In this document: one piece after another, positions 23,813 to 64,000 of the stretch
Numbering within the stretch: position 1 is the first letter of the stretch
Layout: the number at the start of each line of letters is the position of its first letter
Virus record (IMG/VR): IMGVR_UViG_3300045988_061465
Span: 72,493 to 136,492 of that record
DNA length: 64,000 nt
Source: a virus
Strand: one strand, 5' to 3'
Translations under genes and position numbers: made by a program
The notes under the pieces: generated by a model
What the model was told of the DNA's origin: nothing
The model's database searches: none
Seen by the model: the letters and a program-made list of their open reading frames with translations, nothing else

Positions 23813-23884
23813 GGACACGCAGGGACTCGAACCCTATCTTCCGGTGTGCAAAACCAGCGCTCTAGCCATTTGAGCTAACGGCCC
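23813..23884 (-). tRNA. tRNA-Ala-like (anticodon UGC); acceptor stem pairs poorly, possible pseudogene
   Basis: D-arm TAGCTCAAATGGCTAGAGC. Anticodon stem CTGGT/ACCGG with loop TTTGCAC. T-loop GGTTCGAGTCC. The 5' strand GGGCCGT is not matched by the 3' strand CGTGTCC. Confidence 0.4.
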
Positions 23885-29875: not shown

Positions 29876-30151
29876 AGATTTAGTCTCACTATCGTAGGAC
29901 TATAAGCTTCCAACGTCCGACTGGCTACGGAAGGTTATTTACCGGTCTAATAACCTATTCTACTACTTTTCTATAATTCTCTTTATCCATAATTATATAA
30001 TTTAGAAATACAGCCTTACTACCCCTATGTTCCTAGTTATTCTTTAGCTAGCTTTAGATTATTACTAGGTAATACCGCAACGGATTTATTCAGCTGACTT
30101 TACCGCCTCTTGGTATGCAAGGCTAGGTCTCCCTAGCGAAGCTGTATTTAG

Positions 30152-30223
30152 TTGGGCTACCAGGACTCGAACCTGGACTCTCAGAATCAAAATCTGATGT
30201 GACTACCATTACACCATAGCCCA
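30152..30223 (-). tRNA. tRNA-Gln (anticodon UUG)
   Basis: TGGGCTATGGTGTAATGGTAGTCACATCAGATTTTGATTCTGAGAGTCCAGGTTCGAGTCCTGGTAGCCCAA has a U1-A72 pair and a Gln-like architecture. Confidence 0.75.
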
Positions 30224-37819: not shown

Positions 37820-37964
37820 GTGTAAGTATGTGTTTCACAACAAATACTCACTGCGTAAGAAAAAGAAAAATTCAAGAAAATCAAATTTTATCTATCTTAG
37901 AAAAGGTGTAATTTAATCTATCTAAAGATATAATACAATCTTTAGCAAAATTAATTCCCTTTGT

Positions 37965-38345
37965 CTAATTATTAGCAGGAGGTTCTTCTCTAATAGTAAT
38001 AGAATTTCTATTGGCTACATCGCATTCAGGGAATACATAAATATTATGAAGGTCACAACATATCATAATATCTACTTCTTCCTCATCATACTTATGAATA
38101 GTTCCCTTGTTATAATTATTACTTGTTAGGCTAAAACTCAAAGAATTATTTACAGTTTTACTAGCTGTAGTTTTCACCTGGGTTTTATAAAACTTTTTAT
38201 TGTAATATATAACAAAGTCAAATGGAAGATTATCAGACATAGGCAGAAGAATGTCTAAACCATATTTTGATAATTCCCCTATAGCTATACGTTCACCAAT
38301 TTCTCCAAGCTATTTTTTGTTTTTTAATTCGTCTACATTTATCAT
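37965..38345 (-). CDS. YraN/PD-(D/E)XK-like small nuclease; upstream start at 38345 requires read-through of an in-frame TAG
   Basis: The ORF track gives 37965..38240. Extending upstream adds M INVDELKNKK[TAG]LGEIGERIAIGELSKYGLDILLP, a conserved-looking GE-rich N-terminus typical of this fold. If TAG is sense, the 3' end may instead extend to a TGA near 37878. Confidence 0.4.
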
Positions 38346-40480: not shown

Positions 40481-41240
40481 TTTTCTTTTCTTTTTAATTG
40501 TTGCATTTTACACCTAAAACTTACTCACGTTATATCTAATTAGATATTAAAACCTATCTAAGTCCTTACGGGCAAGGTATCGAGTATTGTAAGAAACTGG
40601 TGCCCTCAATGTCTTGGGAAGTTATTGAGTTTTTGATTAATAGCTCTTGTACGCATTACATGTCTAGAGCCATGACAAAACCTAATTTAATAGGACGCTG
40701 GTAATAAAAATTCGTAATAAATTAAAATAATAAATAAAAATAAAAATAATAATCAGGCGCATTTACTTCTTGGTTATGCTATTGATGCTTCTCCTGAGCA
40801 GAGCCAATATTATATGACGTTATTGGCTATTTACGTCTATTCCCCTATTCTGCTATTAGGTTGGTTGCCTTATTGTGAGTCCTGGAATAGCGCGAACCTA
40901 ACGCTATAAATCTCACAGTCTACTTCATTTCCATAACTTATCCAAGTAGACGAAGGTTACCCAATCAGTATTGGGACAATCACAGCGGCGTTTATTTATA
41001 CTCGTCCCGTACGAGTTTAACAAAAAAATGTCAGGAATAGGTAATCACCTGACTATGAGCTCGGAAGCCAACTGCTCTTTGTAGGAAACTCATCCTCAGC
41101 ACACGTTTTGCTTCAATACCCGAAACGTAGAAAGCACATTTAATGACGGTTACTAACTTCCCTCCTATCTACCGACAAGTTCAGAGTTTCGTCTAGGTCT
41201 CATCAGATGGTATTTTATACTCTCCTAGGTTGAGTTTTAA

Positions 41241-41274
41241 AAATATCCCCACCGCTGTGGGGATAAAAAATGAA
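41241..41274 (-). terminator. 8-bp GC hairpin (ATCCCCAC-CGCT-GTGGGGAT) followed on the minus strand by ATTTTTAAAA
   Basis: The only strong GC hairpin in the 1.8-kb ORF-free region. Could terminate leftward transcription from 42302-42994. Confidence 0.4.
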
Positions 41275-42301
41275 CACTATCAAAAGACCTTCCTGTGCCA
41301 CTCTCCTTTGAATTGTTTCACAACAATTACATAGTCTCTGGGCGTACTCATTATAGTCTCCAATAATACACAACAATAGTTCCCTACTCCGGACTTGAAC
41401 CAGAATCTTCTCCTTTAGAGGGAGATATACTGACTTGTACTAGTAGGGAAATACTCCACCTGCCTAAGCTCCTTATGGGAGCTGTAGGCTATCTAGAATA
41501 AGATGGAGAGTTATTTAGATAGTTTCCTATGCTATCTACGTTACCAACGTTCACTAAGAATATAGGTAGCTAATCCATATTCTTGCGACTGAGTTCGAGG
41601 TAGGAAATATACCCTTATGAGGTACCCTCTTATCAGCTAGCCTTATTTTAATCTAGCGGCTTATACTAGGCAACTTCTAAATAAATAAAATGCATAACTA
41701 TAAATGATATGCTTTGGTCTACTGGCATATCAGCAGTACTTCATAATATTGCTATAAGCGACCAACCCTATAGCTCAATCCTCTTGTAATAGTGTTTAAG
41801 TTTGCGAATATACACATTACAATCGTAGCAGTTATTTTCGGATATTTGGGCTATCTGCGTAACCCCGCTTTTGTTGCCTTAACAGGCTAAATGTTAGAGT
41901 AAATAATCATTTGTAGTATGAGTTATAAAACTCGTCCTACTGGCGATTTTTTGAAAACTGGAAAAAGTCGGAAAATTGGGTGCTGACGTTGTGGACAATT
42001 ATTCTCCTTACTCTCCATATTTTCACGTGAAACATACACGATTTTACTAGAAATGATAGTCTTTCCTATCAGCCAGACATAAAACTAAAACTACTACAAA
42101 AGTTAACTCGGTTTTTGATTTTTTTGTTTTGTTGTTGATTTCTCCGTTGACCAATGTTCCAATGATGGAGTTCATATGGGCATTTTATTTTAACTCATAA
42201 TACCTTAGAGCTGCACGTTTGACTTATTTTAAATCTCGTTGTGCGCTGAGATTACAATTAGATTCTGCCACTCTCACTTATTTATACACGAGAGAGTCGT
42301 G

Positions 42302-44821: not shown

Positions 44822-44893
44822 TGCCCTATGGTGTAATGGTTAGCACAGATGACTCTAAATCATTTAGTCTGGGTTCGAATCCTAGTAGGGCAA
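44822..44893 (+). tRNA. amber-suppressor tRNA-Gln (anticodon CUA)
   Basis: TGCCCTATGGTGTAATGGTTAGCACAGATGACTCTAAATCATTTAGTCTGGGTTCGAATCCTAGTAGGGCAA. Acceptor TGCCCTA/TAGGGCA is perfect. Anticodon stem GATGA/TCATT with loop CTCTAAA has U33, C34-U35-A36 and A37. It is a close paralogue of tRNA-Gln(UUG) at 30152-30223 and the only tRNA on the plus strand. Confidence 0.8.
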
Positions 44894-44911
44894 CGCCAAA
44901 AATTAATAGTT

Positions 44912-48275: not shown

Positions 48276-48878
48276 ATGGAAACTTTAAGAACAGAATTAA
48301 ACAGTAACGAAAAACTAGCACTATCATTAACTGGAATGGAAGGTATAGGAGAACATTTTATTTTAAATGGAGAGGCTGCAGACCAAACATTATTAAGAGA
48401 AAAACAAGAGAAGTTTAATACCGCAGTAGATGAGTTAGAAGATAAATTCTCCAAACATAATCAGGCACTAGAGGATTACGCTAAGTCATTATCTAACGAT
48501 ATGAATGGACTTGAAATTATGCCGATGTATGGGTATGCATTAATTAAACCTTTTGAACAAAACCCATTCCAAAAAATAAAAACTACTAAAAGTGGTCTTA
48601 TTACTGATTTAGGTGGATTTACTCCTACTTATAAATCTAATGAGACTGGAGAAATTGAAGAAGAACAACAATTTATTAAGGTAGGAACTGTGATAGAAGT
48701 AGGACACAAGTGTGAGTTCTTGAAGCCTGGAGATATTGTATTTTATACAATAGCTAGTGAATGTATGGTTCCATTCTATAAACTGGGATTTGTAGTAGTT
48801 AATGAGAATAGAATCATGGCTGTAGTTAATGAGAAACTAACTGAAAGAAGAGACGAATTGAAGCATGGAAACAATTGA
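48276..48878 (+). CDS. protein with GroES-like co-chaperonin C-terminal domain
   Basis: LIKPF...KTTKSGLITDLGG...KVGTVIEVGH...KPGDIVFYT...ENRIMAVVNE follows the GroES/T4 gp31-like pattern. Confidence 0.45.
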   Translation: METLRTELNSNEKLALSLTGMEGIGEHFILNGEAADQTLLREKQEKFNTAVDELEDKFSKHNQALEDYAKSLSNDMNGLEIMPMYGYALIKPFEQNPFQKIKTTKSGLITDLGGFTPTYKSNETGEIEEEQQFIKVGTVIEVGHKCEFLKPGDIVFYTIASECMVPFYKLGFVVVNENRIMAVVNEKLTERRDELKHGNN

Positions 48879-49089
48879 TGAAAAAGTTTATTTTAAGCCT
48901 GGGGATTGTGTTACTTTACGGTAGTGTAAAGTAATGCACTCTCCAGTTATGCTTGTTCTAAGAAGAGAAGCAGCTTTATTTAAAGATAACCAAGGATTAC
49001 GAGGACTAAGATGTAGATGGTTTACTGATTCTGGATTAATGCAGGAAGCAGTATTTAATACAAAGGATTTAATTAAAGTAGAAGAGTAA
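48865..49089 (+). CDS. DUF2158 (YodC)-like small protein with 1 in-frame TAG
   Basis: Hand translation METIDEKVYFKPGDCVTLR[TAG]CKVMHSPVMLV...GLRCRWFTDSGLMQEAVFNTKDLIKVEE, which matches the FKxGDxVxL...P.M.V...C.WF pattern. Confidence 0.5.
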
Positions 49090-49661
49090 TGGCTAATTAG
49101 GAAGAATTACAGAAGGCATTCATGGCATACTTGATACAAGATGCCCAAGCACAGGGAATACAATTACAATCAGAGCAAGATTTATAGGCTTACGCCGAAT
49201 AGCTTGGAGAAGATGGAATTAAAGCTAAGTATCAAGAATTTATGTAGAAGATGCAAGGTGGAATTATGGCTAGACTTGGGGCTAAACTAGAATACTATAA
49301 AAAATTAAAAGGAGTATGCCCAGAAGGAGAGGAACTTGTTTATTTTAAACAGGGAGGAAGAATCTGCAAAGCTTGCCAAAAAGCATAGAAAGGAACTAAG
49401 GTTACTAAGAAAGCTAATGAAGTTGACAAATTCAAGGCTGTAAGAGCTTAGTATAAAAAGGATATGAAATCTGCAAAGGATGAAGCATCTAGAGATTCTG
49501 TATCTATTAATAAATATAATGACTAGGAGGTCATGGCAAATAAGGGACACAAAGGAAACTTTAAAAATGGAAAATGGGTTCCAGATAGAACAAAATATGC
49601 TAAGAAAGATGCTTGTGGTTCTAAAATGAAAGTAAGTAAATGCGGTTCTAAAATGAAATAA
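49089..49661 (+). CDS. hypothetical protein with 7 in-frame TAG codons (190 aa)
   Basis: MAN[TAG]EELQKAFMAYLIQDAQAQGIQLQSEQDL[TAG]AYAE[TAG]LGEDGIKAKYQEFM[TAG]KMQGG... Reading TAG as Gln gives natural Q-rich helices. Ends ...GSKMKVSKCGSKMK then TAA. Confidence 0.55.
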
Positions 49662-49691
49662 AAAGATTAAAGATGTTAATGTTAATGATTG

Positions 49692-50258
49692 ATGAGTATG
49701 AATGTATTTAATTATAACACTTTAACTAAATAGTTAGAAATAAATGAACCAGAGCTTCTTCTAGTTAAAGAGTTTAAGGCTTTGATACAGAGAGATAAAT
49801 CTGTTGACAAGGAACGAGTAACTAGAGAATTATCTTACATTTATCTAGCTATTGATTGGAAGAGTCCTTATAGCCAATATTCAGAACATGAAAGACATGA
49901 TGAAGCTATTAGTGACTCTGGACTATCTGAATCCGAATTTAATGACCCGTTATTCAGGGAAGCCTGTAGAAAATACCGAGCATTGTAGGATTCTAACAAA
50001 TCAATAAAACTTCTAGAAGCAGCTAAAAGAGCGGCTGACTAGTTTATTGATTATTTTGATACTATAGTAGATTTAAATGAACGTGATAATAATGGCAAAC
50101 CCGTCTTTCAAGCTGAAAAGGTAATGAAAGAGATGGCTACTCTTCATAAAGTTCATGAAGAATTAGTAACACTAGAAGAGCAGGTTAAGAAAGAGCTTAC
50201 AGAACAATCTACTGTAAGAGGTGGAGCTACAGACGGCTTTGACCCAGGAGACTTTTAA
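49692..50258 (+). CDS. hypothetical protein with 3 in-frame TAG (candidate small terminase subunit by position only)
   Basis: Continuous frame MSMNVFNYNTLTK[TAG]LEINEPELLLVKEFKALIQRDKSV...RKYRAL[TAG]DSNKSIKLLEAAKRAAD[TAG]FIDYFD...GFDPGDF then TAA. Immediately upstream of TerL. Confidence 0.4.
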
Positions 50259-50260
50259 TT

Positions 50261-52621
50261 ATGCCTAGAAAGAAAAAAATATTACCTGAAGAAATCTAGA
50301 ATATAGTAGATTAGGTAAGAGAGAAAGAACAAAAAGAGGATGCCAAAGAAGCTAGAGAACTAGTATAGAAGATAAGAGAGGAAAGGGGCAAAAATGCTGA
50401 TTATTGGGATGTAAAAAGAGGAGATAAGATAGAGGTATTTGACCCTACTTTATCTTATGAAATAACTGGATATAGACCAATAGATGAAACACATGGTCTT
50501 GACTTCGACCCAGATTGGTTTACTGAGACCAGAGAAGTATATAGAAAAACTGGAAAGTATTGTCCATATCTAAAAGATAGTAAGAGATATAATGAGTTTT
50601 GGAAGGAATAGTATAGAAGATGTAAATATGGAATGACTGTTAATGGTTATACAATTACTGGAGATAACTATTTCTTCCTAAACTTCTACTAGCTTCCTAT
50701 TATTGATGATAACAAAGCATCTGGAGAAGGAACAAGTAGTGACTTTCCTATATTTTTCGCATCTCATTATATGTTCTTTCATTATCTATAGATGGCTAGA
50801 GTTCTGCATAAACACGCAGCTCTCATGAAAGCTCGTTCTATTGGATTCTCTGAAATAAATGCATCCTTATCTGCAAGAATGTATTCAGTAATCAGAAGAA
50901 GCAGAGTAATGATTACCTGTTTTAATGATACTTTCCTTAAAGGTACTTTTAGTAAGTTTGATAATGCTTTAACATTCTTGAATACTTGTACAGGAGGAGG
51001 ATTCTTCAAACTACGTTTGATTGACCAAGACTTAAGAAAGAAGTCCGGTAAACAGATTAAGGTAAACGGGCAGTTTGAGGATGTTGGGTTTAAATCAGAA
51101 GTAGTTGGAATAAACGGAGCTAAGGCATCTAATATTCGTGGAGACCGTGTTGACTTATTAATATATGATGAAGCAGGGTCTTGGCCTGGACTAGATACTG
51201 CTGTAGTGCAGGGACAAGAGCTTTGTGAAGTTCAAGGTAAACCTCGTGGAACAATGTTATTTGGAGGTACTGGTGGTGATATGGGTGCTCCATTAGCAGG
51301 TCTTAAGAAGATATATTATAATCCAAAAGCTTACAAAGTTCTTCCATTTAGACACAATTATACACAGGATGGGACTACTATTGAAAGTGGGTTCTTCATT
51401 CCATATTTTGTCTAGTCTCTAAATTCAGAATACATGGACCATAGAGGTGTATGTAATACAGTAGAATATAAGAAGTATCTATAGGAAGAGCGCGACAATT
51501 TATTAGCAGTTCCAGATGACTATCTAAAGAAGTGTGCCGAACGATGTTGGAATGCAGAAGAAGCATTTAATCTTGAAGGTGTTAACAAGTTCAACAAGAT
51601 TCTTATTGCAGACCAATTAGCTAATATAAGACTTAAGAAAATAGGACCAAGACCAGAATCTGGATACATAGACTATTTCTATAAAAATAATAAACACACC
51701 TAGGATAATATAGATGGTTTTAAATGGATTCCTAATATTAACGGAAAAGTAAAAATACTTGAACATCCTGTATGGTCTGATTTGTATAAAGAGTAGATGG
51801 ATAAACTTAGATAGGAAGCTGAGGAAAGGGGAGAAGAATTTGAATCTCCAGCGTATAAAGAAATGCGTGATTTATATGTTGCAGGAATAGATGGTATTGA
51901 TATAGGAGCTAGTCAAACTTCAAAAGAAACAAGAGATCCTTCTGATTTCTGTATAACTATAAAAAGAAGAGCATTTGGTCTAAACGAACCGTAGTATGTT
52001 GCTATGTATAAAGACAGACCTAATGACATTAGAGAAGCCTATAAAATAGCCATGTGTTTAGCTAGATACTATAATTGTAGAATAAACATAGAAGCTACCC
52101 GTGTAGGTATGATTACCTGGGCTAGAGAAAAGGGTTGTTTAAACTACTTTATGAAAAGACCTAGAGCTACTCTAACAGACGTTAAGAATGGAACTACTAA
52201 ATAGTATGGAACACCTGCTACCAAAACCATTATAGAACAACATACTGATTTGACAGCAGCCTTTATTGAGGATTTCTGTCATACTATATGGTTTGAAGAA
52301 ATGTTAGACCAATTTACTGGATATAATGATGAGAATAAAGGTAAATTCGATATTGTAGCCGCTGTGGGAATGACAGAATTGGCAGACTAGGAATTGTCAG
52401 GAAGATAGCCAGTGCTTGTTGAAAAAGAAGTTGAACAATTCCAAGATTATGGTTATTATTACGACGAGAGGGGAATCAAAAGATTTGGGGTTATACCAAC
52501 TTCTAAGACTTTTGAAACTAACATACAAAAAAATGAATACGATGACCCATACAGAATTGAAACAAGTGATCCTAGGTTATATGAGAGACTTGTACAAAAT
52601 GGAATACGTAGGTGGGCTTGA
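50261..52621 (+). CDS. terL: terminase large subunit (TerL) with about 16 in-frame TAG codons
   Basis: A single frame links ORF-track pieces 50792..51415, 52004..52204 and 52412..52621 across TAGs. Contains ...YFFLNFY[TAG]LPIIDDNKASGEGTSSDFPIFFASHYMFFHYL[TAG]MARVLHKH..., the ATPase-like DLLIYDEAGSW and a nuclease-domain C-terminal half. Ends at TGA. Confidence 0.7.
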
Positions 52622-52877
52622 AATTCAGAACCTAGATCCAGTTGGTTATAAGGTATCATTTAACTTTGATAGGTCAGAGATGCCTTTAGTCATTATAGCT
52701 GATTTACCTGATGAAGAATTTCTCCCATTTATAAAGGAAGAATTAAGAAGTAGGAAGTTACAAAGAGTTAAATACTATAATGCAACTAAACTTCCTCCAG
52801 AACAGCATAATTTATGTTATGAAAGAAAAAGAACTAATAGACAAGACGAACGAGGCTATTGCGGAGCTTGTATATGA
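52542..52877 (+). CDS. small standard-code protein overlapping TerL 3' end (start uncertain)
   Basis: ORF track 52416..52877. Internal starts at 52542 and 52599 are more plausible. Cys-rich C-terminus. Confidence 0.35.
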   Translation: MTHTELKQVILGYMRDLYKMEYVGGLEIQNLDPVGYKVSFNFDRSEMPLVIIADLPDEEFLPFIKEELRSRKLQRVKYYNATKLPPEQHNLCYERKRTNRQDERGYCGACI

Positions 52878-54990
52878 TAAGTACGAATTATAGAAAGCCT
52901 ATAATTACTACAACGGGAAGAGAGACCCAGAATAGTTTCGTTACCTGGAAGAAAACTTCGGAATAGGTAGTCCTACTTCTGTAGAATTTACACCATTACT
53001 AAAGAAGCACGTAGATGCTCTAGTAGGGGAATATCTAGGAACCCCTATCCTTCCGAAGATTTCTTGTAAGGATTCAGATACCATTAGTAATATCACCAGA
53101 GAAAAATAGTTGGAAATAACTAAAGGGATAGTTAAATTTCTTAGAGACCATTTAAGTAATTCTATTCTGAAATTTATCGACGGAAAAGATATTACAGATA
53201 AAGCCGTGAAGACTTAGTTAGATAAAATTATTCAAGACATTGATTAGTCTTTTATTTCTCAATATGAGATAGCTGCATAGAATATTATTCATTATATCAT
53301 GCAGTCTAGAGAAACCGATTTAATAACTAAACTCCGATAGTTACTTACAGATTTATTAATTACTGGCTATACATTTTTCAGAGTAAAATCATCATCTTCT
53401 GGAACTAACATAGAAATAGAAGTTCTGAATCCTTTAAATACTTTCGTAGATAGGAATCCAGAATCTCCATATGTTAAAAATTCGTATAGAGTAGTAGTTA
53501 GAAAATGGATGAGTAAAAGCTAGATATTAGCTAAATATGGAAAAGAAATCTCTAGAGAAGATTTGAAAAGACTAAAAGATGAATGGAGAGCTGATGATTC
53601 AGCTGCAGTTTATAGAAGAGTTTATGGCGACACTTGTACTATAGTAAATGAAGACTAGAATCATGAAACTATTCCTGGATACCCAGATAATGAATATAGT
53701 GCTCATAGATTTTAGTTAATTCCTGTTTATGATGTAGAGTGGATAGAAACTGATGACGATTTTGTAATGTAGAGATACAATACCATTAGAATTGGAGAAG
53801 AAATATATATTCTGAGAGGTCTGGACAAGACTGTTATGAGGTCAAAAGATAATCCTAATTTCTGCTCTTTGTCTGTAAATGGGGTATATTTCTTAAATCG
53901 TTCTCAACAACCATACTCCCTGATATTAAAATGTGCACATCTATAGGATAGATATGACTTGTTAAATTATTATAGGGACAACCTGATAGCTAACAGTGGT
54001 ACTGCTGGAGTAATCATGGATATGTCATTGCTTCCTACTAACCTAGGCGTAAAATGGCCAGAAAGAGTGTAGAAATGGTTAGCATACAAGAAGGGTGGTA
54101 TCATGTGGATTGATTCCACTTAGGAGGGAAGAAATGATGGAGCGCAAGCACCTAACTAGATATACAATGGATTTGATGATACCTTAAAAGCTTAGGCTGT
54201 ATAGGCTATTGAATTAGCAATTCAATCAGTAGAACAAACTACATCATCTATAACTGGAGTATTTAGAGAAAGATTAAATGGAATAGAAACTCACGATGCT
54301 GTAACTAATATTAAGCAAGGTGTTACTAACTCTTACATAGTAACCAAGCATTATTTCTAGTAGATGGATCTAATCACTTGTGAGATATTATTGGATAGTC
54401 TAAACTAGGCTAAAATAACATATAAGAAAGGATTGACTGGTACTATTATACTTGGAGATAAATACTAGCAGATATTTACAGCACTTCCAGAATATTTTAC
54501 GGTTACTGATTATGACATCCATATAACTTCTAGCTCCGAAGTAATGGAAGATTTACAAACTATTAAAGCTATTATTCCAGAGTTTGTTAAAAGTCAGCAA
54601 ATGGATCCTGACATCATATTTGAAGCACTAACTGCTAAGAGTCTTACAGACCTTAAATACAAGGTTAAGAAAGCAGTATAGATTCGTAAAGAAGAAAACA
54701 ATTAGCTATAGTAGCTATAGGAAAAATTGGAAGAAACTTCACAATAGGCATAGCAGTTACAGCAAGAACTATAGAAAGCTTAGTAGAAGATAGAAAGTTT
54801 GGATGAGTAGAGATTAGGATTAGAATAGCAGAAAATGTAGTTAGAATATAAGGTTAACTGGCTCAAAGCTCAATCTGATTCTACATATAAAGATAGACAA
54901 ATGGATATAGAAGAAAAGAGAACTGAAATAGAGTTGGCTTAGCTTCATGATGGAAATCCATATAATGACAAAATAAGACAAATACATTAA
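52819..54990 (+). CDS. portal protein with about 35 in-frame TAG codons
   Basis: 723-codon frame MKEKELIDKTNEAIAELVYDKYEL[TAG]KAYNYYNGKRDPE[TAG]FRYLEENFGIGSPTSVEFTPLLKKHVDALVGEY... The C-terminal coiled coil becomes LQQLQEKLEETSQQAQQLQQELQKAQQKIESLDEQRLGLEQQKMQLEY if TAG is Gln. Position after TerL fits a portal. Confidence 0.65.
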
Positions 54991-54991
54991 T

Positions 54992-55726
54992 ATGGCAACT
55001 GGAACAATTGTATATAATAAGGATTAGCAATAGATTTATCCTATTTCAGATGGTTCGGTAATTATTAGTAATGCTTCTGGTTCCAAATCAAATGTGGAAG
55101 AAGATTTAAAGAAACTATTTAAATAGGTGTCAGACCTTTCTGGTTCTAGTGAGGCGGTAAATAATATTATTATTAAGATTCATTACTTACCTGCTGATAC
55201 TGCTGACGAATCTGAGATAAAATTATCTAATAAATAGTGGACTGATACTTTTGAACTTCCGACTGAGGAGAATCCATACATCTGGAAAAGAACTAAATTT
55301 ACTTTCTAGGGAGCTGACGAATCTCAGGGAACTACTATTTATGAGATTGTAGCAAGTGATGTTTCTACTGTTATTTAGAATATATACACTAGAACTGAGG
55401 GAATAACTCCAGTTATTGAGTATAAGTAGAAAACAGATGAGGAGGGAAATCCTCTATATGTAGATTCGGAAGGACATGAAACAACAACTGTTACTCCAAC
55501 TAAAGCATATGACTATAATTATTATTGGAATGGGGAACCAGCTGGTAAGTTAAATAGTCTACCACCGACTCCTGAAGGTTAGTCATATACATGGACAGAC
55601 TATCCTCAAGATATTAGTTTATCATTTAGTTCAGTTTTTATGTCTAGACGTATACGACAAGAAGGTAAGTGGAAACCATTTTCTACCCCTGCTCAATATG
55701 GTCAATGGCCTACTACTGAGTCTTAA
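54992..55726 (+). CDS. structural protein with 8 in-frame TAG (244 aa)
   Basis: Hand translation MATGTIVYNKD[TAG][CAA][TAG]IYPISDGSVII...GKWKPFSTPAQYGQWPTTES then TAA. Confidence 0.5.
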
Positions 55727-55745
55727 TTATTATAATATGGAATTT

Positions 55746-56465
55746 AGTATTGATATACATACCCAGATTAACGGGGAAATAACTATTGAAGACTTTTCAA
55801 AGGAATATGGATAGTATATTGATGAAGATTTAGAGGTAGTAACTTCCTATGATTCTTATAAGTATAGTGAAAGTGCTACCCTAAATACTATCATAAAAGT
55901 TAGTATAGGAGATGCTACTTTGATAGACGTACTTCTCAATGACCATACAGAGGATTTAGACTCTTGTACATTTAAGGTAAAAGAAGATGGATATTATGTA
56001 GTAGACCACATAATTCTTCCTAATATGAAATGGTATGAAAATTCATCTGATGAATACAAGGAGTATTATGAAACTATCTATATAACTGATGGGGAGAAAC
56101 TATATAAAGAAGTAGATGGAGAGCTAGAGGAATGTACTGTAAAAGAAATCCTTGAAAGAAATATAGAAGGAACTACTATCAAAAAATGTAAGGTAGATGT
56201 GTTCTTTACAGGAAATCTACAATAGTGTTATATTAACTACTGTAAGAAACTCTTTGACTCTTTATTAAATAAGTGTTTAACTAGAGAACATGATGCAGAT
56301 ATATTTGCAAGAGATTTTATCTGGATGACACTTAATATTATAGATTATTTAATAGGCTTTAAACAATTCATGGAAGCTGAAAGATTGTTAGCAATGTTCC
56401 GCACTTGCGGTGGATTCTGTGACAATCACCATGAACATAAACGTATAGGTTGTGGATGCTCTTAA
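55746..56465 (+). CDS. structural protein with 3 in-frame TAG and a Cys/His-rich C-terminus (239 aa)
   Basis: Links ORF-track 55920..56225 across TAGs. Ends ...FRTCGGFCDNHHEHKRIGCGCS then TAA. Confidence 0.5.
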
Positions 56466-56620
56466 AAGAAAGGCTATTAAAAGGTATGAGGATTTCCTTA
56501 AAAGGGTTAGAAAGGGATATAGACCAGATTATTAGGATATTTTGAATCTAATTTGTTTTATTAACCTACCCGTAAAATTAGATAATCACGAATTTATTAA
56601 ATAGCAATTATTGAATCATA

Positions 56621-58210
56621 ATGATACAGCCTATTTACACTTCGGTAAGCAATGCTGATATAAAGCCTTGTGGAAAGAAAGGACATTTAATAAAAAGTGA
56701 ACCTATACCTCTCCTAAGAAATAACTATCTTGGAGAATATAGAACTGAATTAGAAAGAGCTAAGGTTAGAAAGAATCTAGGTATTGCTGATGAGTAGAGT
56801 CTTCTTTGGGGAAATATAGAAGGAACTATAGAAGCCTAGAAAGATTTAGTATAGTACATAGAATAGAAATGGACTTATACTAGTGATGTTGCAGAGAATA
56901 TCAATACTGTAAAAGATGCCTTAGATTATGCTTTATTCTTTATAAGTTAGTACAAAGCTAATACAGAAGAAATAGAGGAAATAAAAGTTGATATAAGTAA
57001 TATCAGAACTTCTATTACTGTACTTAGGGAAGAACTTGAAGAAGAAATTGAATCTAACAGAACTGGCATAAACAATCTTTCTGAGAAAATAATCGAGATT
57101 AATGAGGCAATAGAGGATATTAACGAGTCTATCAAAAATATAGATGTCGACAAAAACATCTAGAATTGGATAACTAATAGTCTAAGAAACTCCAAAACCA
57201 TAGAAATAAAGGATGATAATACTCTAGAAGTAATTCTATCCTAGTAGGAGGATAACGCAATACATCTTATTTAGTAGGAAATTCCTCCAGTAGAGGAGGA
57301 AGGAGAGCCTTCCACAGTAGTCCTACCTGGAATATATGTAAAAGACCTGGAACCATCTCTAACAGAGGTAAAGGAAGAAGTTAAGGGAGTATAGGAAGCT
57401 TAGAAGACCACTGATTCTAAAGTAGATTCTAATACTGAGAATATCACAAATATATAGACAAGTTTAGAAACTATAGCTACTTATCAAACTGAACTTCCAG
57501 ATGCTACTACTTCTACTGTTATTCAAGGAACTACAGTCGAAAAATTGAAAGGAAAGCCGTTTAATGAGATTATAGATACTCTATTATTTCCTACTGTTGT
57601 TAGAGATTTGGTTTATCCTTAGTTGTATTATAGTTTTACCTCTTAGATTGTGGAGGTAGGATCCGCTTTACTTACTCCTACTTTAACATTTATAAAAAAT
57701 GATGCTGGAGAGGAAACTAGTAGAGAAGAAACTATTACCTATAATGACTCTCCTGTAGAATCTGAAACATATGATTCTATCGGTGTTTATGTGCATTCTG
57801 GTACTGTAAATTATGCTGCTGGAGAATATCTTATTAACAATAAAGGAGAAGTTACAGACAAGAGAGTGGAAGCTGGTTCAATATCAACTACAGCATAGGT
57901 GACTGCTACCTACCCTTGGTATTCTGGTAATACAGATAGTTTAATCAAATAGAGTCTTGTTCCATTTGGACAATTTTCTGGAATTATTACATTTTCATTA
58001 AGTGGAAAGGCTATTATAAAATTACCTGGAAGTAATACTTAGCTAAATTCATTTACAGTAGATGGAGGACTAGGATACCTAAATGTTGATTTAAGTGGCT
58101 GGGAAACTTCTACCGAATAGATAAATGGATTTCCTTATAAAGTATGGACTAAGAAGGATACTTATTCTTCAGCATTGCCTCATCAAATTAACTTTACTTT
58201 ATCACAATAA
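56621..58210 (+). CDS. tail fiber or other structural protein with about 25 in-frame TAG (529 aa)
   Basis: Links ORF-track 57650..57898 into one frame MIQPIYTSVSNADIKPCGKKGHLIK...INFTLSQ then TAA. Has a central coiled coil and a beta-rich C-terminus. Confidence 0.55.
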
Positions 58211-60075
58211 TGGCATTTAAATATACAGGTGATGCTACATTAGGTGTTGCTTTAACCGTAGAAACTCCTAAACCTCTTGATAATAGAACAGTAGTCAATA
58301 ATTTAGACGAATTATATTCTATTCCGGAGAAATATGCTTATCAAGGCATGACCGTTTCAAATATAGATAACGGAAATATTTATATGTTAGTAGATAAGTC
58401 TAAGATTAAATACAAAGAAGGTTGGAAAGCTTCTTATGAATCTATTTAGATAATCACCTGTACAGAGGCTGAATATAAGGAATGGTCTGAGAATACCACA
58501 GAAGATTTTAAACCTATAGACGAAGGTAAAACATATCTTCATGCAGAAACATATTATTATATATATGAAGACAGCCTAGATGATGATTAGTTTTATTTAT
58601 CAGCAGAATGGGGTAAAAAGATAGAGGAATAGTTGAAATAGAAAGCTCTAAATACTACTGTCGTATAGATTAGAACGGATTTAGACTAGACAATCTCTAA
58701 CCTTTCCAAGTATGCTACCCTTGAAGAATTAACTGAGAATTATGCCCCTAAAACTGACCTAGATTTAGAGAACCCAGAATCCTTGTTATCTAAAGCCTTA
58801 TCTAACCATTATACTAAGGAAGAAACTGATGACATATTTGTTACCAAAGAAAGTCTTAGAGGAGAAGGAATGGAAGGAGATGATTTTGTCTTTGTTACAA
58901 AGAAATAGTATGACGAAGACCAATAGGCTATTCAAGATGAGCTAGATAAGACTTTAAAGGTAGATGGGGACGGTTCGCTAGAAAGTATTACTGTAGGATA
59001 GATAAAGTCTCCAGCAGAAGGAGAGGATTAGCTAGTAGTAGATGTTAAATCTGATGGATTGTTTGTTGGAGAAGACCAATTCGCCATGATGTCAGATGTT
59101 CCTAATCTGGTTACATTAACTGAAGAGGAATATTTAAGACTGGTAGAAGAAGAGGCTATAGAACCTGACACATATTACTATGTGTATGATGTAACAAATG
59201 ATGCTAAAGTCTATATTACTAAGGAGTATTTAGATCAAAATTACCATACTACACATCAGTATTAGTCCTGGGTTGCTACTAATTATTACTCAAAGACATA
59301 GATTGATGAAATTGTTTCTGGTTTATAGAAACTAGGAAGCTACGTTACTACAGAAGATATTAAAGCATACTACACTAGCTCGTAGGTAGATGAAAAGTTT
59401 CTTACAAAAGAAAATGCTCAATCTACATACGCCACTCAATAGTCATTAACTGACCTTTCCAATTAGATAGCAGAGGAGTATGTGACAAAAGAAAGTTTGA
59501 GAGGAGATTCTCCCGAAACCGGTGATGACGATTTTATATTTGTTACCTAGAAGAAATATTAGGAAGATTAGGATGCCGCTTCTAAGGAATTTAGTACAGA
59601 GCTTCTGAAATCAACCTCTATAGAAACTTCTGATATTACTATTTAGAAAATTGTCGAAAAAGAAGTACAATAGGGAATAACTGGAGAAAGTTCAGAAGAT
59701 GAAACAACTGGACAGACTATTGAAAGTTCTGTTAAACTTACTACAGAAGACGATAGATTATTAGCATCTGGAAAGCAAGTTGCTCTTACAGAAGAGGTTC
59801 CTAAATTGGTATGTCTTCCACAAACAGATTATGATGACCTAGTTGAAAATAATAGGACAGAGAACGATACGTACTATTGTACTTATGGAGAAAAAGATAT
59901 ATAGGATACAGGATATGTCAGAAGTGAATATCTAACAGAACGTTACTATACAAAAGCTGAGGTGGAAGGATTAATAAAGGCTGCTGTAGACGAATTGTAG
60001 AAGAAAATAGATGCAATATAGCCTGGTTCTGGTAACGTACAGGTAGATGGAGAAAATGAACAATTAATATTTTAA
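58210..60075 (+). CDS. tail-fiber-like protein with internal repeats (about 621 aa, about 30 in-frame TAG)
   Basis: Links ORF-track 58210..58449 and 59059..59265. Repeated modules FVTKESLRG(E/D)...DDF(V/I)FVT(K/[TAG])K[TAG]Y(D/[TAG])ED[TAG].A. Confidence 0.55.
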
Positions 60076-60291
60076 ATAGTATGGGAACAATTTGGGTTGA
60101 AGGGTAGTTTAAGAACTCAGCAAAACCAGTAAAAGTTGTTGGAGGAAATGTAGGAGGATCTGGAATAGACCCAGATACATTAAAGAACTACGCTACCAAG
60201 GCTGAACTGTAGAAAGCTGTTGAAGACTTAACTGCCTCCATAGAAAAAATAGATCATAATGTAGAAGAAGAAACTTTAATAATACAATAAT

Positions 60292-62112
60292 ATGGCAGCT
60301 ATCAAATCTATAAAGGTTGGAGAAACCGTATATGACTTAAAGGCTACCTATGATGGCTCTGGAAATGCTATAGATTAGACATACGCAAAATCTAGTGCCA
60401 TTCCAACTAAAGTGTCTTAGTTATAGAATGATGAAAATTATTTAAAGGAACACTAGGATATAAGTGGTTTAGCTACTAAAACGGAGTTGGAAGGTAAGGT
60501 AGATAAAGAATTAGGAAAAGGACTTTCTGAAGCTAATTACACAAAAACTGAAAAACAGAAACTTAGTGGTATTGCAGATAATGCAAATAATTATGTACAC
60601 CCAACTACTTCTGGAAATAAACACATACCTGCTGGAGGAGCACTTGGATAGATTTTAACCTTTTCTGAAGATGGGACTGCATAGTGGGCAGATACTAGTA
60701 CTAAGTTAGAGGAACAATTTGATGCTCTTAATACTGCTTGGGAAGAATTACAAAAAGAACAATAGAGTCTAAGCAAACAAGTCACAGAGTTAAGCAGTAA
60801 CGTAGACTTATACTCTTATGGGGTAGAATGGGATATTACCGTATCTTCTCCTATCCTTACTAGAATAGGAAACCCACTGTTACATAAATCCCTTCCTATT
60901 TAGTCTGCTTACAGAGGATGTGTAGCAAATAACGGTGTGGTAAATTACTATTTATATCCGGACGATTGGGCTTACAAAGAAGATAGGAGTACTCCTTCTG
61001 TGCTTGATGGAACCGACGGGACTGTAAGAGTCCATACTCCTAAATTTTATGGTAAATCAGGCTCTAATGGAAATAAAAGATGGGTTAGAATTTCTCTAGT
61101 AAAGCTTGATGATTCGTGGGCGGAAATACCAGAACTATTAATTGACGCATATAGAAATACAGTTGACAATACTGTGTCAGAAACCCCTAAAGCTGTGTCC
61201 GTGGTCAATACTACAGAAGCATTTAGAGGCGGTGGAAATAGAGCACAATTCGATGAGTATCTAACTACTAAACTTGATACCAAAGATGCTTTTAGAAGCG
61301 ATTTAGGAAAACCTAGAACTAATGTTTCTAGAGCTAATATGAGAACTTATGCCACAAATGCAGGCTCTGAATTATTGTGTTATGAATATTATAAATGGAT
61401 ATTCTACTGGAACTATGTAATAGAATACGCTAACTTTAACTCTCAGGCTGCCTATAATGCTGAGCTTACTTCTGATGGTTATCGTCAAGGAGGACTTGGT
61501 CCTGGAGTTACAGACTGGAGTAACTCTGCTACAAGTTGGTCTGGATATAATGGAACCTATCCTATTACTCCATGTGGTTATTGTAATGATATTGGTAACT
61601 TCACTGGAATCAAAGATTTAGTTATTCCAGAATGTACTGCAACAAACGGAACAGATACAGTAGCGACTAAGACATTTAAAGTTCCAAGATGGAGAGGTTT
61701 TGATAATCCATTTGGAGATATTTGGACAAACCTAGATGGAGTAGTTATTCAAAGAACTGCGGCAAATGAAATCAGTAGTGTATATACTACTACAAACAAG
61801 GAAGAGTTTACTGACGTAATTGGCGACAAGACTATAGCAGGATATGAGGTAGTACAAGATGGATACATTAAAGAGTTTGACTTGGGAGAGACAGCAGAGA
61901 TTATACCATCTTCTTGTACTGGAGCTTCAACTACAACTTATATGTGTGATTACCACTATTGCAACGCTAGCTCTACAGCGCTTCGCACGCTACTGGTGGG
62001 CGGCCGTGCGGTTGATGGTGGCGGTGCGGGTCTTGGCTATTTCGGTTCTTACTGTGGCGTCGGCGATGCCGATTCCAATGTTGGGTTCAGGACTCTAAAC
62101 AGAGTATCTTAA
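60292..62112 (+). CDS. tail fiber, DGR target; C-terminal C-type-lectin/FGE-like variable domain ending ...NVGFR
   Basis: The N-terminus carries a phage tail-fiber-type motif (KSSAIPTKVS[TAG]L[TAG]NDENYL...ANYTKTEKQKLSGIADNANNYVHPTTSGNKHIP). Links to ORF-track 60937..62112. The last 35 codons are the GC-rich VR1. Confidence 0.7.
61990..62085 (+). repeat. DGR variable repeat 1 (VR1) at the 3' end of the tail-fiber gene
   Basis: Aligns over 96 nt with the TR. All about 31 mismatches sit at TR adenines. About 65 percent GC in an AT-rich genome. Encodes LVGGRAVDGGGAGLGYFGSYCGVGDADSNVGFR. Confidence 0.8.
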
Positions 62113-62189
62113 GATATAAAATATAGAAATCGATTTAGATATAAATCGTAGGATATTACTTCTAAAAACCGTTGGTTGGCAAAAAAGAA

Positions 62190-62285
62190 CTACTAGTAGG
62201 CAGCAATGCGAATAATGGTAGCAATGCAGGTCTTAGCTATTTCAATTCTAACAATGACGTCAGCAATGCCAATTCCAATGTTGAG
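62190..62285 (+). repeat. DGR template repeat (TR), Asn-codon-rich
   Basis: ctactagtaggcagcaatgcgaataatggtagcaatgcagg... In the VR frame it encodes LVGSNANNGSNAGLSYFNSNNDVSNANSNVE, with adenines in AAY/AGC codons. It sits in the intergenic gap between the tail fiber and the RT. Confidence 0.8.
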
Positions 62286-62428
62286 TTATTATATATTTAG
62301 AACAATTTATTTTATTTTTTTTTAGTTTGTTAAGTGATATCCTTGCCTCTAGGCAAAAGACAACGTAGTGTTAAATGAAGGGTGTTAGTAGGTTAAATCT
62401 CGAAAGCTTCCGATGAAATATATAAAAA

Positions 62429-63652
62429 TTGAAACGTGTAGGATATTTGCACGAACGAGTGTATGATTTGAAAAACATCGAATTAGCTGATGATAAGGCT
62501 AGAAGAAATAAGTCAATTCGATGTGGTATTAAGTAGCATGATAAGAATAGATTAGAAGAAAATAAGGAATTATCAGACAAATTAAAATAGCTAATCTATT
62601 AGACTTCTGAATATAGTACATTTATAATATATGAGCCTAAAGAAAGATTAATCTTTAGACTTCCATATTACCCTGATAGAATCACTCATCACGCTATAAT
62701 GAATATTATGGAACCTATCTGGACCAGCATTTTTATAGATTAGACATATTCCTCTATAAGAAATAGAGGGATTCATAAGGTAGAGTGTGATTTATTCAAG
62801 GTATTGTAGAAATACCCAGATGAAACTAAATACTGCCTAAAAATGGATATAAGAAAATTTTATCCATCTATAACACATGACATCCTGTATGAGATGTTGT
62901 AGAAGAAAATAAAGGATAAGAAACTGTTAAGTCTATTGAAGGAAATAATATATTCAGCCAAAGGAGTTCCTATTGGGAACTATCTATCATAGTTCTTTGC
63001 AAATTTATATCTGACATATTTTGACCACTGGATAAAAGAGGAGTTAAAATGTAAGTACTACTTTCGATATGCTGACGATATTGTGATTCTTGGTAATGAC
63101 AAGAATTATTTGAGAAATGTATTAGTATCTATAAAACTGTATTTAAAACAAGTTCTTAATTTAGAATTAAAACCTAACTACTAGATATTTCCAGTAGAAA
63201 GTAGAGGAGTAGATTTTGTAGGCTACAAATTTTACCACACTCACGTTCTATTAAGAAAATCTATAAAAATGAGAATGTTTAAGCTTATAAATCTATATAA
63301 GCAAAATAAGATTGATAGAGAAGAATTGGAAAGAAGAATGAGATCTTATTTCGGATGGATGAAATTCTGTAATTCTAAGAATTTGTTGAAAAAGATAGAA
63401 ACTTTGACTGGTTTGAAGTTCTCAAATTGGAATGGAAAGGAAGTCAATATATCTAAGTTTTATAATAAATATATTCACATTATAGAGGTAGTTGATTATC
63501 ATAGCCATTTTAGAGTGCACTTTATGTATAACAACAAACCCTATTATTTTAAAAGCAAGAATAAGAAATTACATTATTCTTTGATTAGATACAAATTTCC
63601 TATAAATTTTAAAGTAACACCTTATGTTAGAACCGAATAGAATACAAACTGA
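62429..63652 (+). CDS. DGR reverse transcriptase, 9 in-frame TAG codons
   Basis: Hand translation contains TFIIYEPKERLIFRLPYYPDRITHHAIMNIMEPIW (RT motifs 1-2), MDIRKFYPSITHDIL (motif 3), GVPIGNYLS[TAG]FFANLYL (motif 4, where the DGR-RT-conserved Q of the SQ dipeptide is encoded by TAG), YFRYADDIVILGND (motif 5 YADD) and FVGYKFYHTHVLLRKSIKMR (thumb). Start is TTG at 62429 or GTG at 62459. Ends at TGA. ORF-track 63269..63640 is its C-terminal piece. Confidence 0.8.
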
Positions 63653-64000
63653 TATTTGTCCTCAAATAATTCAAAAACTTGGAAATGGAACATATTATTA
63701 TAACTATGATATATAGGAATCTAATATTTTAGTTTTAAATGAGGAAAATCAAGAAAAAAAAGAAACTAGTTATAATTTTATACAAGTTTTAATAACTGGA
63801 TAGCCTAATTATAAAGATTGCGTTAAAGCAGTAATTAGAAGTTTTCTTACTATTGATGAAGAATTTGATTTAATTAATTCTTACAACAGCTATTCAGAAA
63901 ATCTTATAGATGATTTTGAAATTGTTAATTAGTATAAAGAATATTTAAACTTATTAAAATAGATTAAAACTAAAGTTAAAGATGACTTTACTAAATTATG
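63624..64000 (+). CDS. TAG-containing ORF of unknown function, partial (runs off window end)
   Basis: ATG at 63624 overlaps the RT 3' end. Frame MLEPNRIQTDICPQIIQKLGNGTYYYNYDI[TAG]ESNILVLNEEN... has at least 3 in-frame TAG and no TAA/TGA up to position 64000. Confidence 0.3.

Follow-up and report, generated by a model that had tools for sequence, protein, structure and literature searches.

TAG at both invariant glutamine positions of a DGR reverse transcriptase in a probable crAss-like phage

The window, that is, the whole stretch of 64,000 nucleotides analysed here, is very probably part of a crAss-like gut phage of about 185 kb with Zeta-group traits, in which TAG would be read as glutamine in the late genes (code 15), as far as comparison of sequences can tell. 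It constitutes a clean textbook case, since TAG is the majority glutamine codon of the late genes and occupies both invariant glutamine positions of an enzyme, the DGR reverse transcriptase (RT). TAG-to-Gln recoding of the kind seen here is already well documented in crAss-like phages and no new principle is involved. Ivanova (2014) and Yutin (2021) reportedly predicted a TAG-to-Gln code 15 for these phages. Code 15 in crAss-like phages has been proven by metaproteomics (PMC9523058), and in a survey of them TAG was best aligned with glutamine in terminase alignments and a late-gene model was presented (bioRxiv 10.1101/2021.08.26.457843). The features concerned are collected in Table 1.

Table 1. 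Coordinates of the features discussed, in positions of the window.
Feature	Position	Strand	Remarks
Phage tRNA-Gln(UUG)	30151..30223	-	reference for supB identity
Suppressor tRNA supA, anticodon CUA	41379..41449	-	Rfam tRNA 54.3 bits; more divergent than supB
Suppressor tRNA supB, anticodon CUA	44822..44894	+	Rfam tRNA 66.5 bits; upstream of recoded block, same strand
Recoded late block, 12 ORFs	48865..63652	+	133 TAG, 74 CAA, 25 CAG; all end in TAA or TGA
Gene of unassigned function	49089..49661	+	7 in-frame TAGs
Terminase large subunit (TerL) gene	50261..52621	+	15 in-frame TAGs; phrog_6681, 1e-59
Portal protein gene	52780..54990	+	35 in-frame TAGs; PHROG portal family, E 3e-41
DGR target gene, putative tail fibre or receptor-binding protein	60292..62112	+	8 in-frame TAGs
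DGR variable repeat (VR)	61990..62087	+	3' end of target gene
DGR template repeat (TR)	62190..62287	+	98-nt repeat of VR
DGR reverse transcriptase gene	62429..63652	+	407 codons, TTG start, TGA stop, 9 in-frame TAGs
TAG codon 188, Gln of [I/V/L]GxxxSQ (motif 4)	62990..62992	+	pairs with bRT Gln187 of IGSLTSQ, last residue of the signature
TAG codon 252, second invariant RT Gln	63182..63184	+	pairs with bRT Gln250, in HWQVAPV

The reverse transcriptase and its two invariant glutamines

A preliminary description of this DNA had raised the doubt that the RT frame might have been put together across a frameshift. The frame is continuous from start to stop, with no frameshift and neither TAA nor TGA in any of its codons, an event whose probability by chance at the local base composition is, by our own estimate, about 4e-10. 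The TTG start is conserved, while most relatives have the ATG of 62413 in another frame. The protein matches RVT_1 of Pfam (E 7e-18), and the closest solved structure is Bordetella phage bRT (8ub7_A, E 4e-45). The in-frame TAGs lie at nucleotides 62534, 62588, 62600, 62741, 62807, 62900, 62990, 63182 and 63638. The string GVPIGNYLS-TAG-FFANLYL extends over 62963-63013 and YADD over 63068-63079, so that YxDD, a feature of the DGR clade, is present, and IGNYLS followed by TAG gives [I/V/L]GxxxSQ, the DGR RT signature (PMC7826257), if TAG is glutamine.

The same description had placed this TAG on the invariant glutamine of motif 4 and had named beforehand a residue other than glutamine opposite it as the finding that would speak against the claim. 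The alignment shows glutamine there: codon 188 is aligned with Gln187 of bRT, and the column is glutamine in 119 of 120 database RT homologues, while the column of codon 252 is glutamine in all 120. The word "invariant" is true for this RT clade and not for all DGR RTs, as GxxxSP is reported in Epsilon crAss-like DGR RTs (PMC12386605). The Q187P change in bRT left the misincorporation frequency at template adenines unchanged (PMC7826257).

At the codon level, column 188 in 77 IMG/VR loci is CAA in 58, CAG in 4 and TAG in 15, with no other codon, and all 27 TAG-free RT genes among these loci have glutamine in it; column 252 is CAA in 50, CAG in 17, TAG in 9 and CGA in 1. For 80 loci of genome assemblies from bacteria and archaea, among them those of the cultured isolates Bacteroides pyogenes DSM 20611, Petrimonas sulfuriphila DSM 16547 and Dyadobacter sp. 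Leaf189, the corresponding counts are CAA 53, CAG 25 and TAG 2 for column 188 and CAA 38, CAG 38 and TAG 4 for column 252. Wherever TAG does not stand at column 188 (78 genome-assembly and 62 IMG/VR homologues), the codon is thus always CAA or CAG. The pattern used to search for RT loci stopped at the serine preceding column 188, so the choice of loci did not depend on this column.

Q188 and Q252 are the sole invariant glutamine columns in the alignment of the RT family, and both are TAG here; nine positions drawn at random from 407 would strike both with a probability of about 4e-4. TAG stands at both columns in all nine loci of at least 94% identity, and at 85-94% identity column 188 is CAA in 19 and TAG in 6. 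From these codon comparisons, TAG at the signature glutamine is evidently a recent, effectively synonymous replacement, derived in the sub-lineage of the window. The other seven of the nine RT TAGs and most of those of TerL fall in variable polar columns (K, E, N, D or R in homologues) and neither prove nor contradict glutamine. The predicted tryptic RT peptide GVPIGNYLSQFFANLYLTYFDHWIK is suited to LC-MS/MS at TAG sites.

Late proteins and the distribution of TAG

According to the preliminary description, unrelated lines of evidence, that is, motif 4, the C-terminus of the portal and the gene at 49089-49661, pointed to the same amino acid, and each of them was upheld by independent tests. The C-terminus of the portal reads XLXXLXEKLEETSQXAXQLQQELXKAXXKIESL (X = TAG) at 54703-54801 with nine TAGs; the coiled coil proposed for it is an overstatement. 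The proposed glutamines were borne out over the portal as a whole, where glutamine occupies 23 and 18 of the 35 TAG columns in two TAG-free portals against a background of 6-7% (binomial p about 1e-18 vs. locus L001 and about 3e-13 vs. L003). Twenty-three columns hold glutamine in the two TAG-free portals alike; of these, 16 are TAG and 2 are CAA or CAG in the window. The portal is also matched by gp20 of crAss001 (7qog, E 8e-12), the C-terminus of which is likewise glutamine-rich.

The gene at 49089-49661 contains DLXAYAEXLGEDG at 49179-49217 and EFMXKMQGG at 49236-49262. Two TAG-free homologues of it contain MGNQEELQ, DLQAYAQQLGEEG and EFMQKMQGG, with which all three glutamines proposed earlier agree, two non-TAG residues being different (E to Q and D to E). 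In the TAG-free homologues L119 and L120 the first four TAG columns of the gene are glutamine, and among 37 relatives 72 of the 88 non-TAG codons in TAG columns are CAA or CAG, the others being GAA, TAT and scattered singles.

When all the late genes were compared with L003, a locus free of TAG, glutamine stood at 24 of the 63 TAG columns that could be aligned (background 4.7%, p 4e-16), and the BLOSUM62 scores summed over these columns were 129 for Q, 84 for E and 40 for K. Tests of glutamine in TAG columns against TAG-free homologues gave p values from 1e-13 to 1e-22. The glutamine content of the late proteins is 4.9% with TAG taken as glutamine and 2.1% otherwise, that of the homologues being 4.7-5.1%. 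Two tRNA(CUA) genes, a gain in coding density and a BLOSUM62 sum over TAG columns in which glutamine is far ahead are in agreement with this assignment. Coding density between 48 and 64 kb, which is 0.19-0.49 in the standard code, reaches 0.83-0.99 when TAG is taken as sense, and a greedy ORF call with TAG as sense gave 11 late ORFs, of which nine end in TAA and two in TGA.

TAG makes up 57% of the glutamine codons in the plus-strand late block. On the minus strand, 33 of the 42 long ORFs contain no TAG at all even when TAG is allowed as sense, and the sole early ORF with TAG as stop has TAA directly behind it. At least one minus-strand gene of the tRNA region, that of a PD-(D/E)XK endonuclease (37881-38345), does contain TAGs, so the late strand is not strictly the only one recoded. 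The ten largest early proteins gave matches to NAMPT/NAPRTase, SPFH/Band 7, AAA ATPase, OmpA-like and radical SAM-like proteins, and no release-factor or aminoacyl-tRNA-synthetase gene was found among the ten.

These results are of consequence for annotation, because the standard code shatters the late module (TerL, portal, structural genes, DGR target and RT) and lets DGR finders miss the RT, whereas code 15 recovers intact genes.

Suppressor tRNAs, proposed mechanism and other readings of TAG

Both supA and supB fold as ordinary cloverleaves. Among 27 tRNAs, supB is most similar to the phage tRNA-Gln(UUG), with 73% identity and near-identical D and T arms, and supA has no clear nearest isotype; a glutamine identity of the suppressor tRNAs is at most suggested by sequence similarity. 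The pair U1-A72 was considered as a glutamine identity mark and rejected, for the phage's tRNAs for Thr, Ile and Lys have it as well. The label "tRNA-Pyl" given by ARAGORN to both CUA tRNAs comes from the anticodon alone.

E. coli supE is an amber-suppressing tRNA-Gln(CUA) that arose by host mutation and suppresses partially. The tRNAs of the window share with it the CUA anticodon, a putatively tRNA-Gln-like body, and predicted insertion of glutamine at UAG in competition with release factor 1; unlike supE, they are phage-encoded and would serve at least 133 sense TAGs. From amber suppression, as by supE, and from the published model of recoded phages, we infer that the phage tRNA(CUA) would be charged with glutamine by the Gln-charging system of the host and would then outcompete host release factor 1 at UAG. 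TAG-rich proteins, among them the RT with its first TAG at codon 36, would be completed only after the suppressor tRNA had accumulated, and most minus-strand genes, being TAG-free, would be translated properly whichever code applies. In this way, mutagenesis of the tail-fibre-like target by the DGR would be tied to a late, suppressor-dependent phase, and temporal gating by the suppressor tRNA is inferred from these steps.

That TAG is still a stop, the late genes being pseudogenes, fragments or products of faulty assembly, has practically no probability. Under the standard code the late region at 48-64 kb does fall into short ORFs, as a standard annotation would report, but continuous frames of 407-786 codons lack TAA and TGA, the homology of the RT, TerL and portal runs at full length across the TAGs, and dozens of independent contigs, 180-190 kb in length, contain these TAG-rich genes too; the glutamines in the TAG columns and the suppressor tRNAs also argue against it. 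It is very improbable as well that TAG is read as another amino acid, namely Glu, Lys, Trp, Tyr or pyrrolysine. Apart from the ARAGORN labels, this would be favoured by K, E, N or R in homologues at many TAG columns, by two relatives in which TAG occupies an invariant Trp column, each by a single TGG-to-TAG step, and by the prediction that about 30% of phage suppressor tRNAs are of non-Gln isotypes (PMC10879173). However, both invariant TAG-bearing RT columns are exclusively glutamine, the synonymous partners are mainly CAA and CAG, the BLOSUM62 sum over TAG columns puts Q ahead of E by 45-71 units, and the tRNAs are ordinary cloverleaves, with the D and T arms of tRNA-Gln in supB; for pyrrolysine in particular, no pyl genes were found among the proteins scanned.

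A minor but real probability belongs to the explanation that TAG is glutamine and has no timing role, CAG having drifted to TAG, after fixation of the suppressor, wherever translation is late or termination pressure is absent, in which case the motif-4 TAG would be neutral. TAG and CAA or CAG interchange freely at the same columns in close relatives, endonuclease genes on the "early" strand carry TAG, and some Zeta phages have a CTA tRNA without any recoding (PMC12386605), all of which would fit such drift. It is opposed by the strong bias of strand and module described above (57% of late glutamine codons; none in 33 of 42 minus-strand ORFs) and by the TAA right behind the only early TAG stop. 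This bias together with the TAA backup looks like selection keeping the early genes code-neutral.

RNA elements also adjoin supA. RAGATH-14 RNA precedes it by 32-56 nt in the window and in three relatives, which an exact search with a part of the supA tRNA had retrieved. In the window, supA is followed by a hammerhead-like ribozyme (41171-41236) that scores just below the Rfam gathering threshold; in one relative it is a pistol ribozyme that follows. What is shown is a conserved adjacency and no more. TAG-rich "ORFs" at 40.7-41.9 kb are probably artefacts, one being overlapped by RAGATH-14 RNA and another by a weak RAGATH-7-like match. A permissive Rfam search of 40.5-46.5 kb gave no theta or HDV-like ribozymes near the suppressor tRNAs, RAGATH-14 and a hammerhead being what it returned, and a literature search for RAGATH-14, or for RAGATH with tRNA and phage, gave nothing relevant. 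It is rather improbable that these elements control the code switch and, via it, the DGR. If the cassette set the maturation or timing of supA, it would be an analogue of theta ribozymes, and if it were the switch, the RT with its nine TAGs would make tail-fibre hypermutation conditional on it.

Phage affiliation and the DGR cassette

The portal and TerL are homologous to crAss-like phage counterparts (7qog and phrog_6681, respectively), and a search of TerL against PDB sequences gave no match. By tblastn, the portal shows no more than 22-24% identity to the portals of classified crAss-like phages, namely cr10_1, cr128_1, cr116_1, IAS virus and Cellulophaga phage phi14:2, and the genome class, about 185 kb, is larger than that of the known code-15 crAss-like phages. 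Megablast of 49000-64000 against the INPHARED phages gave no match at 85% identity or above. With known code-15 crAss-like phages the window has in common in-frame TAG in structural and packaging genes, the TAG-Gln alignment, a phage tRNA(CUA), early genes that can be read in the standard code and relatives from the human gut, and it differs from them in no matter of principle.

Placement near the Zeta group is made from traits, not from sequence, by matching with Table 1 of PMC12386605 (for example ctoVY1, cthgQ11 and 3717_85572), a paper with 43 Zeta genomes. The traits are contigs of 183-193 kb in the relatives, 35% GC and a block of 27-30 tRNA genes in the window, a CTA suppressor, amber suppression, a DGR, a GxxxSQ RT and no evident Avd. 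For seven DGR RT genes in Zeta crAss-like phages with the GxxxSQ motif, this 2025 paper reports amber suppression; its passages on them that were consulted do not state that TAG falls on the signature glutamine itself. It also reports that Avd is missing from most Zeta crAss-like DGRs.

In the cassette itself, TR and VR differ over 98 nt at TR adenines only, and VR ends 25 nt before the stop of the target gene. Neither the VR-TR gap (77 nt) nor the TR-RT gap (141 nt) contains an ORF, and no Avd-type match was found among the neighbour genes scanned, a set without the small ORF 60081-60290. In a Pfam scan of the DGR target including its C-terminus, of the other late proteins and of the ORF that lies downstream of the RT, the only matches were weak, of coiled-coil type and below the gathering score, with neither a lectin nor an Avd family among them. 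The system shares with the bRT/BPP-1 DGR the RT family, IGxxxSQ, YxDD, TR and VR with adenine-only changes, and the position of VR at the C-terminus of a receptor-binding-type protein. Whereas bRT is encoded in the standard code and works with Avd, the RT of the window has nine TAGs and no Avd ORF between VR, TR and RT; furthermore, its C-terminus is extended by about 80 residues that bRT lacks.

The reverse transcriptase and its invariant glutamines

The DGR reverse transcriptase (RT) of the window is read over 407 codons without interruption, with no TAA or TGA and with nine TAGs in frame, so its reading frame is free of frameshift. In the translation, X was placed at each TAG and no amino acid was therefore presupposed; the ordinary Gln codons of the gene are only two CAA and no CAG. 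The protein matches RVT_1 of Pfam (E 7e-18), its YADD lies at 63068-63079, and its best relative of solved structure is the Bordetella phage enzyme (bRT, 8ub7_A, E 4e-45, residues 46-328 in the HMMER alignment).

The preliminary description had placed a TAG on the motif-4 Gln, and this placement is borne out by protein and codon comparisons alike. Within GVPIGNYLS-TAG-FFANLYL (62963-63013), codon 188 (62990-62992) stands opposite Gln187 of bRT, named as the last residue of the [I/V/L]GxxxSQ signature (PMC7826257), and its column is Q in 119 of 120 database homologues (57-91% identity). At the DNA level the remaining 77 IMG/VR loci have CAA (58), TAG (15) or CAG (4) and no other codon there, and the column is Q in all 27 IMG/VR RT genes lacking TAG altogether. 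Furthermore, 80 loci from GTDB representative genomes, including the cultured Bacteroides pyogenes, Petrimonas sulfuriphila, Dyadobacter, Dysgonomonas and Leptobacterium, have CAA (53), CAG (25) or TAG (2); the pattern used to retrieve them stopped at the preceding Ser, so this column was not selected for. By relatedness, codon 188 is TAG in nine of nine relatives of at least 94% identity, CAA (19) or TAG (6) at 85-94% and only CAA or CAG below 85%, and TAG is thus the derived state.

Codon 252 (TAG, 63182) is likewise opposite bRT Gln250, in a column that is Q in 120/120 homologues and is written CAA (50), CAG (17), TAG (9) or CGA (1) in IMG/VR and CAA (38), CAG (38) or TAG (4) in genome assemblies. 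The RT family alignment has no invariant Gln column besides Q188 and Q252, and both are TAG in the window; the chance of nine random positions among 407 covering both is about 4e-4. The other seven TAGs fall in variable polar columns (K, N, D, E, R, Q), which carry no information on the amino acid yet are compatible with Gln. The word "invariant" used earlier for the motif-4 Gln holds for this family alignment but not for DGR RTs at large, since those of Epsilon crAss-like phages are reported with GxxxSP (PMC12386605). In bRT, the Q187P substitution did not change the misincorporation frequency at template adenines (PMC7826257). Two IMG/VR relatives (L022 and L009) have one TAG each on an invariant Trp column (GWMKF, SNWNG), a single G-to-A step away from TGG; with code 15 in use, such a step would replace Trp by Gln rather than create a nonsense mutation.

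The A-run before the RT start (62413-62431) differs in length (A5 in the window and eight loci, A6 in 26, A7 in two), so that in the window and most relatives an ATG at 62413 does not share the RT frame; solely A7 brings it into frame. Translation hence probably begins at the conserved TTG (62429), barring a slippage site or an assembly error at the run. About 80 extra residues at the C-terminus (63416-63649, + strand, RT residues about 330-407) are conserved within the ~185-kb phage group; bRT (328 aa) lacks them, as do most bacterial homologues, whose matches stop near residue 323-327. The cassette upstream of the RT is a textbook DGR, in which template (TR) and variable (VR) repeats mismatch exclusively at TR adenines over 98 nt; no Avd accessory gene is evident beside it.

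Features of the window with their positions
Feature	Position	Strand	Remarks
RT ORF	62429 (TTG) to 63652 (TGA)	+	frame 0, 407 codons
In-frame TAGs of RT	62534, 62588, 62600, 62741, 62807, 62900, 62990, 63182, 63638	+	frame reading
TR	62190-62287	+	98-nt repeat matching VR, just upstream of RT
VR	61990-62087	+	3' end of gene 60292-62112
Portal ORF	52780-54990	+	PHROG portal family 3e-41; crAss001 gp20 (7qog) 8e-12
Terminase large subunit (TerL) ORF	50261-52621	+	1e-59
PD-(D/E)XK endonuclease gene	37881-38345	-	PF11645, 2e-22; 2 TAGs
HTH protein, HNH-like C-terminus	21532-22080	-	GGKC-TAG-ICGY...CCRCHREIH; 5 TAGs
supA tRNA	41379-41449	-	ARAGORN, anticodon CUA
supB tRNA	44822-44894	+	ARAGORN, anticodon CUA
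RAGATH-14 RNA (RF03145)	41505-41678	-	166.7 bits vs gathering 149.1; 55 nt 5' of supA
RAGATH-1 hammerhead ribozyme	41171-41236	-	just under threshold, 54.2 vs 56.3 bits, E 2.6e-7; 142 nt 3' of supA
RAGATH-7-like RNA	40774-40951	-	weak match

TAG in the portal and other late genes

Full-length portal homologues were found by tblastn against GenBank phages in three human-gut contigs (51-59% identity); the gene is free of TAG in MT838543 (L001) and MT835470 (L003) and contains 45 in MT835539 (L002). The TAG columns of the window portal are Q at 23/35 in L001 (background Gln 7.1%, binomial p 1e-18) and at 18/35 in L003 (6.2%, p 3e-13); of the 23 columns with Q in both TAG-free portals, 16 are TAG and two are CAA/CAG in the window. 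The C-terminal stretch 54703-54801, with nine TAGs, aligns with Gln-rich stretches of L001, L003 and crAss001 gp20, in agreement with the Gln-rich stretch proposed for it. In gene 49089-49661, compared with the codons of 37 IMG/VR relatives, the seven TAG columns have CAA/CAG in 72 of 88 non-TAG codons, the others being GAA (8), TAT (2) and single codons; codon 4 is TAG (28) or CAA (8), and codon 38 is CAA (22), TAG (14) or CAG (1). Two TAG-free homologues (53-54% identity) read MGNQEELQ, DLQAYAQQLGEEG and EFMQKMQGG, matching all three Gln residues previously assigned there. Over all late genes, TAG columns are Q in L003 at 24/63 (background 4.7%, p 4e-16), and the summed BLOSUM62 score over these columns is 129 for Q, 84 for E and 40 for K.

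Reading TAG as sense raises ORF coverage from 0.19-0.49 to 0.83-0.99 at 48-64 kb and hardly alters it at 0-20 kb. The late block (48865-63652, +) contains 133 TAG, 74 CAA and 25 CAG, that is, TAG makes up 57% of its Gln codons; Gln accounts for 4.9% of its residues when TAG is included and 2.1% when it is left out, homologues having 4.7-5.1%, and every late ORF terminates at TAA or TGA. The late genes are thus shown to use TAG as sense, interchangeably with CAA/CAG; cognate CUA tRNAs are phage-encoded, and most minus-strand genes are code-neutral. The initial reading of TAG as Gln in the RT, the portal and gene 49089-49661 was thus a correct observation, statistically solid and rightly interpreted.

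Of the 42 minus-strand ORFs with at least 100 codons (1-43 kb), 33 lack TAG even under a code that permits it as sense. Only one early ORF clearly stops at TAG (4543-5355, -), and a TAA comes directly after it (the pair at 4540-4545), which keeps termination under TAG suppression; this tandem pattern is described for Zeta crAss-like phages in PMC12386605. Two TAG-containing genes that look like mobile endonuclease genes (37881-38345 and 21532-22080) lie within the tRNA block of this otherwise TAG-free strand, so recoding is not strictly confined to the late strand. Auxiliary genes in the TAG-free module, all four on the minus strand (5748-7310, 8165-8992, 31011-32984 and 9430-10446), are those for a NAMPT/NAPRTase-family nicotinamide phosphoribosyltransferase, two SPFH/Band 7 proteins and an OmpA-like outer-membrane beta-barrel protein.

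From knowledge of amber suppression and a published model (bioRxiv 10.1101/2021.08.26.457843; PMC10879173), host enzymes would load Gln onto the phage tRNA(CUA), which would compete with RF1, and TAG-rich proteins would be completed solely after the tRNA has accumulated. The RT, whose nine TAGs begin at codon 36, would come under the same regime, which would make DGR activity a late function. TAG recoding may accordingly be read as a regulatory timing device; alternatively, neutral drift and not regulation may lie behind TAG use.

Relation to known crAss-like phages

The recoding is genetic code 15, which has been demonstrated in crAss-like phages by metaproteomics (PMC9523058), and the same X-alignment method gave TAG = Gln for terminases in a large survey (bioRxiv 10.1101/2021.08.26.457843). 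TAG-to-Gln recoding as seen here is thus already known, and the present case is a good internal proof of an established phenomenon, in a lineage itself already in public databases: RT relatives are 96-97% identical in IMG/VR and 92% in an HRGM MAG. The window (35% GC, 27-30 tRNAs, a CTA suppressor, amber suppression, a DGR with GxxxSQ and Avd not evident) and its relatives, on contigs of 183-193 kb, fit the amber-suppressing, DGR-bearing Zeta crAss-like phages as profiled in Table 1 of PMC12386605. We infer Zeta membership from these traits and distant portal/TerL homology. Near-relative whole-phage contigs (L124, DXLM01000001.1, 186,052 bp, and L125-L129) occur among GTDB representative MAGs, as a whole entry or as part of one, under bacterial and archaeal labels that include 'Bacteroides sp.' HRGM_Genome_0403, 'Clostridium sp.' and 'Methanobacteriaceae archaeon'; the entries have the look of binning artefacts, which makes the labels weak host evidence.

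Suppressor tRNAs and neighbouring RNA elements

ARAGORN finds 28 tRNAs in the window, two of them (supA and supB) labelled 'Pyl' because of the CUA anticodon alone. supB shares its strand with the late genes and precedes the recoded block, in a stretch of TAG-free genes; among the 27 other tRNAs it is nearest to the phage tRNA-Gln(UUG) (73% identity, D and T arms near-identical); supA is divergent.

supA is located inside a non-coding RNA cluster (40774-41678, -). RAGATH-14 is also found directly 5' of a supA-type tRNA in three relatives (L121 935-1207, L122 2413-2685, L123 4946-5669), which were picked by exact match to part of supA, and in one of them a Pistol ribozyme (62 bits) replaces the hammerhead downstream of the tRNA. 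The arrangement of RAGATH-14, tRNA(CUA) and self-cleaving ribozyme recalls theta ribozymes beside suppressor tRNAs (PMC10879173); no literature was found on RAGATH-14 with tRNAs, and this conserved arrangement is the most interesting loose end outside the Gln recoding. In addition, a tmRNA (RF00023; 22297-22853, -; 73 bits, full model), which at 557 nt probably has an insertion, and a further tRNA matched by Rfam (23812-23884, -) were both missed by ARAGORN.
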